IMG/VR virus record: IMGVR_UViG_2663763326_000007
From: a virus
Taxonomy: Duplodnaviria; Heunggongvirae; Uroviricota; Caudoviricetes
Reading direction: 5' to 3' (one strand)
DNA length: 43,062 nucleotides
The notes beneath the pieces were generated by a model. That model did no database searches, was not told the DNA's origin, and saw only the letters and a list, made by a program, of their open reading frames with translations. This document shows positions 24,898 through 30,508 of the stretch, piece after piece. A program made the translations under genes and the position numbers. Numbering within the stretch: the stretch's first letter is position 1; each line of letters begins with the position of its first letter.

Positions 24898-25386
24898 ATG
24901 GCTACCAACCCAAGAGAGCACGCCCGGCGAGTGCTGGACACGTTCTGGTGCGGGCGTGGTTTCCCTGTTGATCCAGCGAAAATTGCTCACGACATGGGAT
25001 TAGATGTTTTTATTACCGATCTTCCTGGGAAAGTTTCTGGCGCACTGATTAAACAAAAAGATCAAGATCCAGCGATCTTTCTAAACAGTGATGACAACAA
25101 AGTTCGTCAACGTTTTTCATGTGGGCATGAGTTGGGGCATTACATCGCCCGGCAAGCATCGCATAGCGATGAATATGAGTACGTTGATTTACGTGGCGAA
25201 ACCGCAAGCGCCGGAACGCATCCTGATGAAATTTTTGCAAACAAGTTCGCAGCAGAACTTCTGATGCCGGTAGATGAGGTCAGAAAACTGCACGCTGACG
25301 GTCAACCAAGTTATATAATGGCGCATTATTTTGGCGTATCTGACGATGCGATGACTTATCGTTTAAAGAACTTGAGGTTGGGGTAA
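24898..25386 (+). CDS. ImmA/IrrE-family zinc metallopeptidase (M78-like), stand-alone peptidase domain
   Basis: HEXXH motif in ..FSCGHELGHYI.. and a downstream Glu in ..NKFAAELLMP..; GGAGGAG ribosome-binding sequence. Confidence 0.7.
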   Translation: MATNPREHARRVLDTFWCGRGFPVDPAKIAHDMGLDVFITDLPGKVSGALIKQKDQDPAIFLNSDDNKVRQRFSCGHELGHYIARQASHSDEYEYVDLRGETASAGTHPDEIFANKFAAELLMPVDEVRKLHADGQPSYIMAHYFGVSDDAMTYRLKNLRLG

Positions 25387-25395
25387 CGCTTTAAA

Positions 25396-26001
25396 ATGCC
25401 ATCGGATGACGATTTTAACAGCCGTTTCAAACAGGAAGTAGCACGCAGACTGAAGGATTCCCTCAACCTACACCGTCAGTTAGCAGAAGAGGTTGAGCCG
25501 GAGGACGATGAAACTCCGGTTCAGTCTCCTGACGAAGCTTCACCTCAGCCAAAGGTTTCGCACGCCCCCAAAAAAACGGCTGTCCGTATTCGCGGAATAG
25601 CCAGAAAAAGAGCTGCCGAAGCTCGCAAAATGGCTGTAGCTGCGTCTAGCAAAAGAATTCCAACTGCTACACCCTCTCAACAAGTCACCCGTACTGAGAG
25701 TAAAATCTTGACCGAGTTCACATCTGTGAAACAGGTGAATTCACTTGATACCGAGCATGAGCGCAAACAACTCAACAACAAAGATTTTGAAGCAGAAATC
25801 GCTCTAAAAAAACGATACGGGAAATGGTTCCTGATTATCCTTGCTTTCCAACTTCTGATAATGAATGGTGTATTTATTGCCGACGGCGCAGGTAAGCTGG
25901 AATTTGAGGATTTAACACTACAGTTGTACATGGGCGGTACTTTGACAGAGGTATTCGGCCTCGTGCTGGTCGTGACAAAATACCTTTTTAAACGCAAGTA
26001 A
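25396..26001 (+). CDS. Membrane protein with charged, low-complexity N-terminal region and two C-terminal transmembrane helices
   Basis: Starts 10 bp after the peptidase stop; hydrophobic segments ..WFLIILAFQLLIMNGVFIA.. and ..GGTLTEVFGLVLVVTKYLF.. Confidence 0.55.
   Translation: MPSDDDFNSRFKQEVARRLKDSLNLHRQLAEEVEPEDDETPVQSPDEASPQPKVSHAPKKTAVRIRGIARKRAAEARKMAVAASSKRIPTATPSQQVTRTESKILTEFTSVKQVNSLDTEHERKQLNNKDFEAEIALKKRYGKWFLIILAFQLLIMNGVFIADGAGKLEFEDLTLQLYMGGTLTEVFGLVLVVTKYLFKRK
25930..26001 (+). repeat. 72-bp direct repeat, copy 1 (3' end of the membrane-protein gene)
   Basis: ATGGGCGGTACTTTGACAGAGGTATTCGG..CGCAAGTAA recurs at 29352..29423 with about 6 mismatches. Confidence 0.85.
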
Positions 26002-26463
26002 CTCTCTCGGTCCAACAGTCTTTCGAAGGCCCTGATCAAAGGGCCTTGATAAATTAGCAGTGCGTTGAAAACAGATAGTTATTCCCATCAGTTCCAACGT
26101 AATACACATCAAAAAAATCACCATTCTTTTGCTCTAACGTCAACACCTACCCTTAAAAAAATAATTCTCCAAGAATGAGAAAGTTATTGTGTGTATTAGA
26201 TAAGATATGAGCTGACACATCTATGGCGTGGAGCCAAATTTAATATGACAGTCCGCTCTGTGCCATAAGCGGACTGTCAATAAACAGATTCACTTGTAAA
26301 TCTTGAAGCTATACATATTTACTTTCAATGATAAATAAAAGAACTATCCAAAAATCACTGAGAGCATATTTTAACTAACCCTCCGCTACTATTAACATAA
26401 ATTTCACCCAACCATAATTAAATTGATACATATAGCAACTTACCTTGATACGAATCATCTGGG

Positions 26464-27162
26464 TTATATTTTTCCATATTTTTTTCCGTCAAATCGAATC
26501 ATGCCAGGATCAAGAAAATTAATTAAATCGATTAACGCGTGCTGTATTCTGATTAGCCTTTCTTTATAAATTCCGATATCTCTTGTCATATTTATCACTT
26601 CATTGTTTAAATCTAAAAAAAATGGCTCATTGATAAAGCAATTTTCCTTTGTGAAACTGCCGTAACCTATGCAATCAAATCCAGTATCTGTTGATATCAG
26701 CATCTTTTCTGCAATAGCTCTCTGCTCTCCTATGAAAAACATAAAATACTGACCAAAGACGTCTGTTTGGATTAATGAGTTAATATTGTTCTGTAATCTA
26801 ATAAACTCCCTCATTTTTTTATTTTTTTCTAGGCTAAGGTATTGAATGTCTATGCGGGCAGCTTCTGTCCATGCAAAAAACTGGGAAAAAAGAAAAACAG
26901 TATTGTTGATAACATAATCTTGTTGGCGCTTATTCCCATTATGATAAAACTCTTCAATGAACCCCAATTCTAATATATTATAAATACGGCTTTGTAAGTC
27001 TGAAGCTGAGCGAATTAACGGTTCAATATAGTACTGATGTTTTCTCCTTACATCCAGTGATTCATTGAGCTTGTTTATTCTATTCTGATTATAAGTAGAT
27101 ATAGCAATAGAGATTATAGCTATTGCACCACTAATAAAGCTTGAAATTAATGCCGTACCCAT
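26464..27162 (-). CDS. Low-GC protein with N-terminal transmembrane helix (232 aa), function unknown
   Basis: ATG at 27160..27162 with AAGGA 7 nt upstream; N-terminal ..LISSFISGAIAIISIAISTY..; Asn/Ile/Lys-rich, far more AT-rich than the flanking phage genes. Confidence 0.5.
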   Translation of the reverse strand: MGTALISSFISGAIAIISIAISTYNQNRINKLNESLDVRRKHQYYIEPLIRSASDLQSRIYNILELGFIEEFYHNGNKRQQDYVINNTVFLFSQFFAWTEAARIDIQYLSLEKNKKMREFIRLQNNINSLIQTDVFGQYFMFFIGEQRAIAEKMLISTDTGFDCIGYGSFTKENCFINEPFFLDLNNEVINMTRDIGIYKERLIRIQHALIDLINFLDPGMIRFDGKKYGKI

Positions 27163-28349
27163 CTAAAAGTCCTTTGATTCTTGCTTGGTTAACAAAATGA
27201 CATAATTTTATTTAATGCCATAACAACTTAACAATATATCATAATATGATTATTATGGTGTAGCTTGTCGCATCTACGCTCCATTACAAACAGATGTAAG
27301 ATATAACCTATATGTTTTAGCCAGCAAATTCGAAAGCATTCAAAGTAGTCTCATCGAACTCTCGAAACCCTATGTCTTCGGGTATAAAATATTTAAATCC
27401 ATTTGCATAATATCGACTCATGTTTATTATATTCTCCCCATTCACCATTAAGATTTGACATTATTTTCAACAATCGGTTATTGCAAGATTGAAATATATT
27501 TTTACTTGACACAATATTCCATGTAGCCCAGCGATTCGACTTACCCCCAACTATACGGACAATCTAAATTAAATCGATGATTTTTTGATACATTCTCCTC
27601 TCTCCATTACTTTATGTTTTTGTTCCCCAAAAATACCTTGCTCTCTAAAAAATAATTGTTCTTTAAGTTCAAAATCGAGATCTACATGAGCGTTAGATAC
27701 AAAGCTAATATGTTGAAATGTCTTTCCCCCCCCATAACGGCATTGTTATCTAAACTATGTTACACAAATATAATATTACCCTTTCAACGTAATCCAAGAA
27801 TAAGATTAATGCCATTATATATATCATAAATATGATATTTTGTATATTTTTATCATTTAGCCTTGATTGTACTAGGTGTACTCTCAACGAAGTAGGGAAA
27901 GTCTGTTCCTCGCTCACAGCTGCCCTTCAGTAAGCGAAAAAATGCCTACTCGGTGCCATATACAGCCATTGTTATTAACAGCAGGGAATAATTCAAAACT
28001 GAAATTAAATATCTACCTTTTACAGTAGAAATAGTTCCTCCAGGACACTATCCATTGCCGGGCACAATCACTCGGGGTATAACGATATAAAATATGTTCA
28101 TGATAGTGCAGGTTCGTATATTAAGTTCAGCAGCGAAAACATGCCTTACAGGTTTCCGGTTTTGGGAGCGTCGTTACAGGATCCTGCGCATACCGTTCCC
28201 ATCTGTTGAATTAAAGGTTTCACAGCCTTTGCCGATATCACCTTTTACCTTACCTGTGATGCGTTCAGTGCTCAGCGTTGTTTACTGTAGCTCTCGGGAC
28301 TGATTACAGACCGCGTCTTAAAAACCAATCCTTACTCTAAAGGGAATTC

Positions 28350-29273
28350 ATGAGATTAAAATACTCAGTACTCTTACTCGCCATTGCCCTTACAGGCTGT
28401 GATAACAAAAAAGATGAGATCGGTTGTTCTTCGGAAATAACCCAGTCAGCTCTCATGGATTTATTAAAAAAATCTGCTTATGAAGGACTCTCTGAACAGG
28501 TCGATAAATACCCTGATGTCACTAATCAGACCAAACGAAGCACACTGGACAAGATCAAACTAGCCATCTCTGAGATCTCCACAACATCAAGTGACACGGG
28601 CAGCACAATGAAAACTTGTGAAGGGACCGTGACGATGACTCTATCTGCGAACGAGTACGTCCAGCTTTCAGATGCTTACAGAAAGAATTTTAATCGTAAT
28701 CTCGATAAGCAAATGGAAAGCCTGTTTTTGGAGAACAACGCAAACGCCTTTTCAAAACGTATCACCTACACCGTGCAGGCGACCGACGATCAGAAAAACG
28801 TTTTTGTAAAAACCTCTACTGATAATCCGATATCAGTGGGCGCCGCTTTACTGACATCGCTTTCCATTATCACCCCGATCGTTGAGCAGCAGAAAATCCA
28901 GCAGGCTAAGGATGCCCAACAGAGTCAAATTGAAGCGGAACAACAGGTGCAACTCAGGGCGCAAGAACAGGCTAAGTATGAGGCGGAGAAGCAAATAGAG
29001 AGACAGGCACAACTTCAGCCGCAAAAAGCTGACAACCTTGATCAGTCCCGAATGGCATTTGCGAATGCCGACTCTGATTTGAGTACCGTCTGGAGCAAGT
29101 TAACCCCGGCGAAGAAAAAAGATTTGCTGCCTTCTCAGCGTCAGTGGATCAAAACTAAGGATGCTATGTGCGGTAAAGTTTCAATGCAGGGAACAGATGC
29201 TGAAGTCAAGAAAATGGTCGACTGCCAGACGCAAATGACCCTTTCAAGAATCGCTTTCCTCAGAAACCAATAA
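28350..29273 (+). CDS. Lipoprotein with C-terminal DUF1311 (LprI-like) domain
   Basis: Signal peptide with LTGC lipobox; Gln-rich coiled linker; C-terminus ..LSTVWSKL..QRQWIKTKDAMCG..MVDCQTQMTLSRIAFL.. fits the remembered DUF1311 Cys/Trp pattern. Confidence 0.55.
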   Translation: MRLKYSVLLLAIALTGCDNKKDEIGCSSEITQSALMDLLKKSAYEGLSEQVDKYPDVTNQTKRSTLDKIKLAISEISTTSSDTGSTMKTCEGTVTMTLSANEYVQLSDAYRKNFNRNLDKQMESLFLENNANAFSKRITYTVQATDDQKNVFVKTSTDNPISVGAALLTSLSIITPIVEQQKIQQAKDAQQSQIEAEQQVQLRAQEQAKYEAEKQIERQAQLQPQKADNLDQSRMAFANADSDLSTVWSKLTPAKKKDLLPSQRQWIKTKDAMCGKVSMQGTDAEVKKMVDCQTQMTLSRIAFLRNQ

Positions 29274-29351
29274 CTGAAGTCTCCTTCAAGCTGGCGCCAG
29301 GTGTTAACCTGGTGCCAGCTTAGTCATCAAGTGCATATGTAACTGTTTTAT

Positions 29352-29447: not shown

Positions 29448-30266
29448 TCAAAATGCTGAATTAGCAACGGATATAGCCGACTTTTTCCCCATTACCATCA
29501 ATTTATCCAGTGTCATACTTCGCAGATTGTCGCTGTGGATCACCAGATACCCTGCCCGCTCAGCGATCTCTTTGAAAGCGTCAAAGGTCATCAGATGTTC
29601 GCCTTTGGCAACATGGCGCATCCCGGTCACTTTTCCATTTTTGATAGTGGTGATAAAAGAAAAATCTGGAATGGTTGGGTGATTTTCATCGAGTAGCAGG
29701 CAGTGGATGTATTCAATCGCCTCTAACATTTGCGTCTGTGACAGTTGTTCTATGTGAGAGACGGCGAAGCGTTGATGAATCATGGTGTAGGCATCGGGAT
29801 ACATCATGCCTTTCTTGCCGACCAGTATATTAACGGCATCACGCAAGGGAGTACGGTCATCGGTAGTTGTACTCCGCCTCTCTGGACGCTGGCTAAAATA
29901 ACAATCTTCCAGCTTTTCGAAAACTTCCCAGGCCTGTTCTGTTTCCAGCATTTTGGCATGGCGAGCTGCGCCGCGTTCTGTCCAGAGAATGAGGGATCGG
30001 GTATGTTTAGCAACTGACTGACTATCTGTCAGTCTGTTTTTGAAGTCGCGTAATTCATTACCTTCCAGCTTAAAAAAATGCTTTCCTACGACAAATCTGG
30101 CGATGTTGCGCTTGAAGTTTTGCTGGATACCATTTACTTCCGTGCCATACAAACTGGCAAGCAATTCAGTAGTGATGACGGGAAGTTGGTTATGATGTAG
30201 CGGAGAAAGGGATTCCGCAGATATTTGGACTGTCATCGCAGTGGCCTCACTTAGTGTTTTTTTCAT
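29448..30266 (-). CDS. Phage antirepressor / regulatory protein (Ant, ORF6N/Rha-like N-terminal domain)
   Basis: N-terminal ..PVITTELLASLYGTEVNGIQQNFKRNIARFVVGKHFFKLEGNELRDFKN.. resembles the antirepressor N-domain; start set at ATG 30264..30266. Confidence 0.55.
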   Translation of the reverse strand: MKKTLSEATAMTVQISAESLSPLHHNQLPVITTELLASLYGTEVNGIQQNFKRNIARFVVGKHFFKLEGNELRDFKNRLTDSQSVAKHTRSLILWTERGAARHAKMLETEQAWEVFEKLEDCYFSQRPERRSTTTDDRTPLRDAVNILVGKKGMMYPDAYTMIHQRFAVSHIEQLSQTQMLEAIEYIHCLLLDENHPTIPDFSFITTIKNGKVTGMRHVAKGEHLMTFDAFKEIAERAGYLVIHSDNLRSMTLDKLMVMGKKSAISVANSAF

Positions 30267-30508
30267 CACCACCAGCGACGCCAATCATCTGGTGGTGAGC
30301 TGTGCAGGGTTGGCGTAACCGGCTAAGTGAACCCGGCGCTTCCACAGAAGCCCCCACACAGCCCACCATAATGCGAATGTGGCCGTGCCTAACACATAAA
30401 AAAACCGCTAACGCGGCTATGCGTCACTTAGATATCCGGGACGCCAATCCCGGCAACCGATTTTGCGGCTGCGCGGAAACTATAGCCCCGGACTTTTTCT
30501 AAGTCAAT

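Follow-up and report, generated by a model that had tools for sequence, protein, structure and literature searches.

What occupies a 1.2-kb gap that is left empty in the annotation of a widespread Escherichia coli prophage? We investigated positions 27163–28349 of the virus record IMGVR_UViG_2663763326_000007 (IMG/VR; Caudoviricetes), whose whole length of 43,062 nt we call the window. The window comes from E. coli sequence type 131 (ST131), in which it is a lambdoid prophage: its region 26400–29300 was 100% identical to many ST131 chromosomes, such as those of strains EC958 and JJ1886, and was found in 565 of the 5426 complete E. coli genomes. No feature is annotated in RefSeq within 27163–28349 in any listed genome. 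In EC958, where the prophage adjoins tRNA-Leu/Cys/Gly, pgsA, and uvrC, the neighbors are a 232-aa "hypothetical protein" (minus strand) on one side and a "lysozyme inhibitor LprI family protein" (plus strand) on the other. Judged by sequence comparison, the gap is two unrelated pieces lying side by side, which have no function as one unit, and most of it is a dead gene. We consider it likely that the make-up is an ordinary one, consisting of a pseudogene, the old 5′ flank of that pseudogene, the short promoter region of a cargo gene that was kept, and prophage backbone. This accounts for an unannotated gap in the prophage of hundreds of sequenced ST131 genomes, where annotation of a pseudogene fits better than a hunt for new small genes.

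Composition of the stretch

The border between the two pieces emerged from comparison with related elements. The prophage of E. coli O43 strain RM10042 has flanks identical to those in the window but carries different cargo (a GIY-YIG nuclease gene and two hypothetical genes), and the common flanks stop at approximately 26008 on the left and resume at 27949 on the right. Thus, this family of lambdoid prophages has a variable cargo slot at 26009–27948, bordered on the left by a 201-aa gene ending at 26001, whereas 27949–28349 is backbone between genes (98% identical in RM10042), upstream of the plus-strand gene for the LprI-family protein (28350–29273). Within the slot, positions 26207–27930 (minus strand) form a 1.7-kb cassette that corresponds to the Z-region moron of phage P2-EC58 (AJ512683), with approximately 86–87% DNA identity to it, to a copy in strain GDAR2-2, and to a viral contig. 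Homology to P2-EC58 ends at approximately 27930 and that to RM10042 begins at 27949, leaving an 18-nt junction (27931–27948) between cassette and backbone. Accordingly, the left 768 bp of the stretch moves together with the 232-aa gene, whereas the right 401 bp does not.

A first-pass annotation of the stretch had treated it as a single AT-rich element inside a cargo insert, without any open reading frame (ORF) of 60 aa or more. Its AT richness was confirmed, with a guanine–cytosine (GC) content of 0.356 against 0.48 for the whole window (0.32 for 27163–27930 and 0.42 for 27931–28349). The single element, however, divides into two pieces meeting at about 27931–27948, of which the backbone piece lies outside the insert, and the statement on ORFs was wrong by one: a 69-aa ORF with an ATG start is present at 28094–28303 (plus strand), within the backbone part. 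This ORF was ruled out as a gene, as a search of 1.84 billion representative proteins returned no homologue other than the ORF itself, and it had no match in Pfam, PADLOC, or PHROGs. In simulated sequences of like composition (n = 1000), the longest ORF was 67 ± 18 aa, compared with 69 aa observed, indicating that the scarcity of ORFs is as the base composition predicts.

Positions 27317–27735 on the minus strand are, by homology, a heavily decayed pseudogene of a family of approximately 150-aa proteins with a predicted PD-(D/E)xK (restriction-endonuclease-like) fold. When two intact homologues (P0127 and P0126) were compared with the whole window by tblastn, residues 3–152 aligned to 27727–27320 on the minus strand (E = 4.7e-17 and 6.2e-15, respectively), with four stops in the aligned frame. 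The DNA identity of the pseudogene was 76% to a Yersinia gene and 69% to an E. coli TA054 gene. Compared with the intact Yersinia gene, the window copy carries six deletions (2, 11, 26, 1, 2, and 1 nt), and the ancestral ribosome-binding site and start codon are gone. In addition, both catalytic motifs are altered (FDLG to FNLD and VECK to VGGK), with the loss of three residues that are invariant in the family (D56 to N, E67 to G, and C68 to G). The first-pass annotation had named decayed gene remnants among several possible contents, which proved correct for 27317–27735, and had noticed a minus-strand ORF of about 34 aa. This ORF exists and is the C-terminal remnant of the pseudogene, although its coordinates had been off by 2 (43 aa at 27317–27448, with the 34-aa start at 27421).

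We distinguished three diverged lineages of the cassette, namely those of the window, of P2-EC58, and of locus L024. The last was reached via a protein 85% identical to the 232-aa product and showed 74% identity over window positions 27823–26251, with a separate 67-nt match at 27909–27843; scans of viral contigs for the cassette yielded no lineage beyond these. All six deletions of the window copy are present in the P2-EC58 lineage, indicating that the gene was dead before these lineages split, and the latter carries four further deletions. Segment 27291–27700 was 76% identical to P2-EC58 (89 mismatches and 9 gap columns in 411 columns), and its Jukes–Cantor distance of approximately 0.26 was not below the synonymous divergence (dS) of 0.163 in the adjoining 232-aa gene, suggesting that the pseudogene drifts at about the neutral rate. 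The indels between lineages in the pseudogene segment are non-triplet. Furthermore, in the clinical ST131 isolate 1162T7 (L035), an IS1 element is inserted within the pseudogene, at the equivalent of approximately 27585, where it parts the upstream flank from the 232-aa gene; that this insertion is tolerated supports neutral drift of the segment.

The cassette has moved horizontally and would once have carried two co-directional genes, one for the restriction-endonuclease-like protein of about 150 aa and one for the 232-aa membrane protein. The former would have lost its start, its frame, and the catalytic D and E before the two E. coli cassette lineages parted, and what now lies upstream of the 232-aa gene would be the short promoter region of that gene, the pseudogene, and the old 5′ flank of the pseudogene; the order of these events is what we infer from the lesions.

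Among cassette-type copies, the nuclease-like gene is least decayed in L024 and in a metagenomic relative, L027. In L024, two genes of 63 and 61 aa are called upstream of the 232-aa gene, and both align in frame with ORF fragments of the window. Comparison with L027, together with three-frame translation of L024, revealed that these small "genes" are the halves of a single gene of approximately 150 aa, split in each copy by one frameshift in an A run (A6 at 2560–2580 in L024; A7 at 313–335 in L027, a canonical A_AAA_AAA slippery site). In both copies, shifting the frame by −1 would give back the complete protein. Since the frameshift sites differ, these are probably independent inactivations at mutable runs. 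Frameshifts in A or G runs recur in every cassette copy, and a very improbable alternative to decay is that they control the expression of a toxic nuclease. Two other ideas were dropped: a three-gene operon containing the 63-aa and 61-aa genes, which was ruled out by L027 and by at least 789 homologues in which these are halves of one gene, and a decayed reverse transcriptase, an idea that came from a match of the 232-aa protein (see below) and was ruled out by the identity of the remnant as the 150-aa nuclease-like gene.

Upstream of the pseudogene, positions 27736–27930 (minus strand) were assigned from the identity profile as its ancestral 5′ flank, parts of which recur upstream of the genes in L024, Yersinia, and E. 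coli TA054. Block 27808–27907 within this flank was 95% identical between the window and P2-EC58 lineages, compared with 76% in the pseudogene, and to judge by its sequence it may be the old promoter or operator of the nuclease-like gene, the evidence for constraint being modest. Such conservation weighs against an ordinary make-up, pointing to a possible upstream regulatory role of some kind. In the fuller form of this alternative, a promoter or operator in the block would drive either a long leader that runs through the pseudogene to the 232-aa gene or divergent transcription in the direction of the LprI-family gene, and the pseudogene would have been kept as a 5′ leader or a source of small RNA. 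The pseudogene and the 232-aa gene are indeed co-directional, with no terminator-like site between the block and the 232-aa gene, and parts of the flank recur upstream of intact family members. We nevertheless regard a regulatory region as unlikely. The block was only 73% identical in L024, and its high identity elsewhere could stem from recombination mosaicism rather than from constraint; it contains no strong minus-strand promoter consensus; 232-aa homologues elsewhere are lone genes with short upstream regions; and the IS1 of 1162T7 sits between the block and the 232-aa gene.

The stretch also gave no sign of the small RNA genes that had been suggested for it. An Rfam scan of 27163–28349 returned no match at the gathering score or at E ≤ 5, and the predicted folding of four segments was not unusual relative to shuffled sequence (z = −0.39 and +0.17 for the 27736–27930 flank; +0.59 and −0.72 for the others). 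A 19-mer from the conserved block, scanned against genome contigs, gave only chance matches in unrelated taxa. Palindromes at approximately 27237–27252 and 27822–27839 were dropped from consideration because they were not conserved across lineages. Likewise, small peptide genes found no support: searches of Pfam, PADLOC, PHROGs, and NCBIfam returned nothing except phrog_7353 for one ORF that depends on the length of the cytosine tract described below. Both that 55-aa ORF and the 34/43-aa ORF were rejected as genes, being broken by stops and frameshifts in the P2-EC58 lineage.

Length variation of the cytosine tract

A run of eight C at 27726–27733 (G8 on the coding strand of the pseudogene) was present as first reported. 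It occupies the site of the ancestral ribosome-binding site and start codon of the nuclease-like gene. On the coding strand, this site reads AAGGAG, 9 nt, and ATGGGAAAG (AAGGAG-N9-ATGGGA) in the near-intact L024, GGGGAGATGAAAAAC in P2-EC58, and GGGGGGGGAAAGAC in the window. The copies of P2-EC58, GDAR2-2, and L013 have CATCTCCCC at the tract site, and L024 has no run. The absence of the run from the P2-EC58 and L024 lineages indicates that it arose in the window lineage by point changes; these would have converted GGGGAGATG, which stands in place of the G8 run in the P2-EC58 lineage, to GGGGGGGG within the wrecked ribosome-binding-site and start region. A G/C run of at least 8 nt was present in 34% of simulated windows.

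Among 409 complete genomes, the tract was C8 in 185 and C9 in 196, with other lengths (C7 or C10) in approximately 28, as counted, like the controls, with short exact queries. The rest of the 1187 bp was identical in most genomes with differing tracts, and in an alignment of four near-identical genomes the tract was the only difference (C7, C8, C9, and C10). As controls, an A8 + T8 pair in the same prophage was identical in 425 of 431 genomes and an A8 run in the 232-aa gene in 408 of 409; with such runs about 99% invariant, the tract variation does not stem from a general artefact in the assembly of homopolymers. Tract length also differed between isolates that, to judge by their names, share an origin: JJ1886 (C8) and JJ1887 (C7), 4/1-1 (C8) and 4/4 (C9), 1162T7 (C8) and 1162C (C9), and Esc9 (C7) and other Esc isolates (C8). 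The tract is thus a real and common length polymorphism, which will give rise to spurious assembly differences; within ST131, it could be used as a rapidly evolving marker.

In E. coli, the rate of indels grows exponentially as runs lengthen, with G:C runs of 8 bp as known hot spots (PMC8510543). A G:C run of 8–9 bp would slip during replication and give rise to the C7–C10 polymorphism without a selected role, and neutral slippage suffices to explain the observed variation. We infer that the tract is probably a neutral, hypermutable by-product of gene decay. No functional gene has its ORF or core promoter at this site, which falls where the start of the pseudogene was destroyed. The nearest promoter-like arrangement on the plus strand, picked out by eye (TTGAAA, 14 nt, CATAAC), has the wrong spacing, lacks the final T, and is absent from the scan output. 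Three observations weigh against neutral decay as the whole account of the tract. C8 and C9 are nearly equal in frequency, and C9 restores an ATG-initiated ORF of 55 aa that phage annotators have called as a gene, so that balanced or phase-variable maintenance is a minor possibility; some of the length calls, moreover, could be assembly errors, though the A8/T8 controls speak against a general artefact.

The ORF deserves closer description. At C9, an ATG at 27735–27733 (minus strand) opens 55 codons that correspond to the N-terminal third of the old nuclease, whereas at C7, C8, and C10 any product would be limited to 9–17 aa. The 55-aa ORF matches phrog_7353 over its full length; this "protein" family is thus the annotation of a pseudogene remnant that is open in C9 genomes only.

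Homopolymeric contingency loci, with poly-G/C tracts at the 5′ end of phase-variable genes, occur in Neisseria, Haemophilus, and Campylobacter. The tract resembles them in that a G:C run lies right after an ATG, differs by 1–2 nt between close relatives, and opens a frame at one length. E. coli, to our knowledge, is not known for homopolymeric contingency switches of this kind. Unlike the classical loci, the "gene" here is a pseudogene remnant without a ribosome-binding site or a catalytic part, and the tract is lineage-specific and has no known phenotype. A slipped-strand switch, as proposed in the first-pass annotation, would make the tract a true phase-variation locus at which the 55-aa peptide, or translational polarity on the 232-aa gene, gives ST131 two states. 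The length indeed varies between apparently related isolates, with C8 and C9 split near 1:1; the ATG directly adjoins the tract, and the end-to-end match to phrog_7353 concerns exactly the ORF that C9 opens. These facts notwithstanding, we consider a true switch very unlikely. No Shine–Dalgarno sequence precedes the ATG of the ORF, the ancestral AAGGAG and its spacer being lost. The peptide would lack the D...ExK catalytic part, and toward its C-terminus it is out of frame with the intact homologues. In the P2-EC58 lineage the frame is broken, and the tract itself is missing from both other cassette lineages. The DNA around the tract evolves neutrally, IS1 is tolerated downstream of it in 1162T7, and slippage of an 8–9-bp G:C run is expected anyway (PMC8510543). 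Of the original proposal, therefore, the variability stands (C7 to C10), whereas the switch would have to work in the start of a dead gene, without a recognizable promoter spacer, and at a site that is not a tract in the two other lineages. Its most specific form, in which C9 turns on the 55-aa remnant and either the peptide or translation-dependent protection of the leader from Rho modulates the 232-aa membrane protein, is about as improbable; if it were true, clonal populations would be mixed for a prophage-encoded exclusion or defense trait.

H-NS prefers AT-rich, horizontally acquired DNA, and the cassette part is both acquired and low in GC content (0.32 vs. 0.48 for the window), but an AT-rich island whose main "function" is xenogeneic silencing of cargo by H-NS is extremely improbable, as promoter-like sites are no denser than composition predicts (10 vs. 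10.0 ± 3.1 in dinucleotide-preserving shuffles, which also speaks against the suggested promoter island), a scan for the H-NS nucleation motif, though of little information, showed no enrichment across the window (70 matches vs. 57.6 ± 8 in shuffles; the stretch itself has only two matches, each with 2 mismatches), and H-NS binding is a chromatin state rather than an identity of the DNA, compatible with a pseudogene beside backbone.

The nuclease-like family

The protein of approximately 150 aa reconstructed from the split gene of the other cassette copies had at least 789 homologues, almost all of them intact and 150–160 aa long, in E. coli TA054, Yersinia, Dickeya, Pectobacterium, Vibrio, Nitrosomonas, and many metagenomes. 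None of these homologues contains a Pfam domain, the family had no match among Pfam, NCBIfam, and PADLOC models or PDB sequences, and sequence searches found no characterized member. In an alignment of 39 members, D56, E67, C68, and K69 were invariant (FDLG...VECK), constituting a D...ExK motif. An AlphaFold2 model of the protein (predicted local distance difference test score [pLDDT], 88; predicted template modeling score [pTM], 0.83) has an alpha-beta-beta-beta-alpha-beta core. The closest solved fold was that of the XisH-like protein 2okf (structural-likeness score, 10.3), followed by AF1548 (8.8), the CdiA-CT nuclease toxins (8.4), SfsA (8.1), NgoMIV (7.8), and HindIII and NucC (7.1–7.2), with weak Foldseek E-values. 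By motif and predicted fold, the ancestral gene would belong to the PD-(D/E)xK superfamily, with putative nuclease activity. It differs from known PD-(D/E)xK nucleases in that the family has no sequence-level membership in Pfam, NCBIfam, or PADLOC, and the window copy is dead.

Intact members occur as lone genes in contexts resembling defense islands: beside a Cap4 nuclease, a Shedu SduA_C protein, a Gp49/HTH_37 toxin–antitoxin pair, or the transfer genes of conjugative elements. They are not beside 232-aa homologues, by which a conserved pairing of the two cassette genes was ruled out. In the phage collection, tblastn gave no match to the intact family. The family, represented here by proteins P0126–P0243 and loci L028–L034, is a candidate single-gene defense system or orphan nuclease. 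A large family of restriction-endonuclease-like proteins of about 150 aa may merit testing, even though the copy in the window is dead.

The setting is reminiscent of the defense hotspots of prophages and satellites (Rousset et al. 2022, PMC9122126), as it combines a variable slot, conserved flanks, and different small cargo in related prophages with intact nuclease-like relatives in defense islands. That study covers the tin/old-side hotspot of P2 and the psu-int hotspot of P4, whereas the lambdoid slot of the window and the nuclease-like family are not described there. For both cassette genes, known here from sequence, an anti-phage role is putative.

The surviving cassette gene and other features of the window

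The cargo gene that survived (26464–27162, minus strand) is intact and encodes the 232-aa, N-terminally hydrophobic "lysogenic protein." Between the window and P2-EC58, its nonsynonymous divergence (dN) was 0.040 compared with the dS of 0.163, indicating purifying selection. The protein corresponds to phrog_5606 and had 290 homologues, often encoded by lone genes in prophages, the hotspots concerned being regions of P2-like prophages or sites beside integrases. It weakly matched the PADLOC model for a reverse transcriptase (RT)-associated transmembrane protein of DRT systems (E = 1.8e-5), and a role as a superinfection-exclusion or defense effector is a plausible guess. Its 5′ region (27163–27316, minus strand; 84% identical to P2-EC58) contains an AAGGA ribosome-binding site and, according to a consensus scan, a candidate promoter (TTGTTA-18-TAAAAT) at 27234–27205; these features suggest that the region is the promoter region of the gene.

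The identity between the window and P2-EC58 spans part of a left inverted repeat, ORF1, 760 bp of upstream DNA, and the first ~20 nt of a right inverted repeat. In the AJ512683 record, ORF1 is annotated as a "putative lysogenic protein," along with a predicted promoter and the two flanking inverted repeats; the pseudogene is unmentioned. The settings differ, as the window cassette lies in a lambdoid cargo slot, whereas the P2-EC58-type cassette lies between P2-like tail-fiber and tail-sheath genes; in strain GDAR2-2, a P2-like prophage carries it between the genes for tail-fiber assembly and tail sheath. A hairpin with a perfect 12-bp stem (TGACAGTCCGCT ... AGCGGACTGTCA) is present at the left end of the window cassette (26246–26279), within the "left inverted repeat" of P2-EC58. 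The loop of this hairpin (CTCTGTGCCATA) is similar to the 12 nt with which the backbone starts at the right junction, CTCGGTGCCATA (27949–27960); this similarity could have been left by the recombination that brought the cassette in, or it could be fortuitous. To the left of the slot, 24898–26001 (plus strand) encodes an ImmA/IrrE metallopeptidase (PADLOC capP model, E = 2.4e-25) and its 201-aa partner (phrog_5346), both of which are kept in RM10042.

Two further observations concern other parts of the window. Positions 30288–30485 (minus strand) gave Rfam matches to the C4 antisense RNA, its a1/b1 targets, and isrK, upstream of an ORF6N-domain gene (29448–30284); together, these look like a P1-type c4/anti-repressor immunity module in a lambdoid prophage. 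Finally, the intergenic gap that contains the A8 and T8 runs also has, at approximately 1293–1427 (plus strand), a 44-aa ORF that is missing from the ORF list; its ribosome-binding site (AAAGGA) is good, and its C-terminal half is strongly hydrophobic. This ORF was identical in 425 of 431 genomes and may encode a small membrane peptide.

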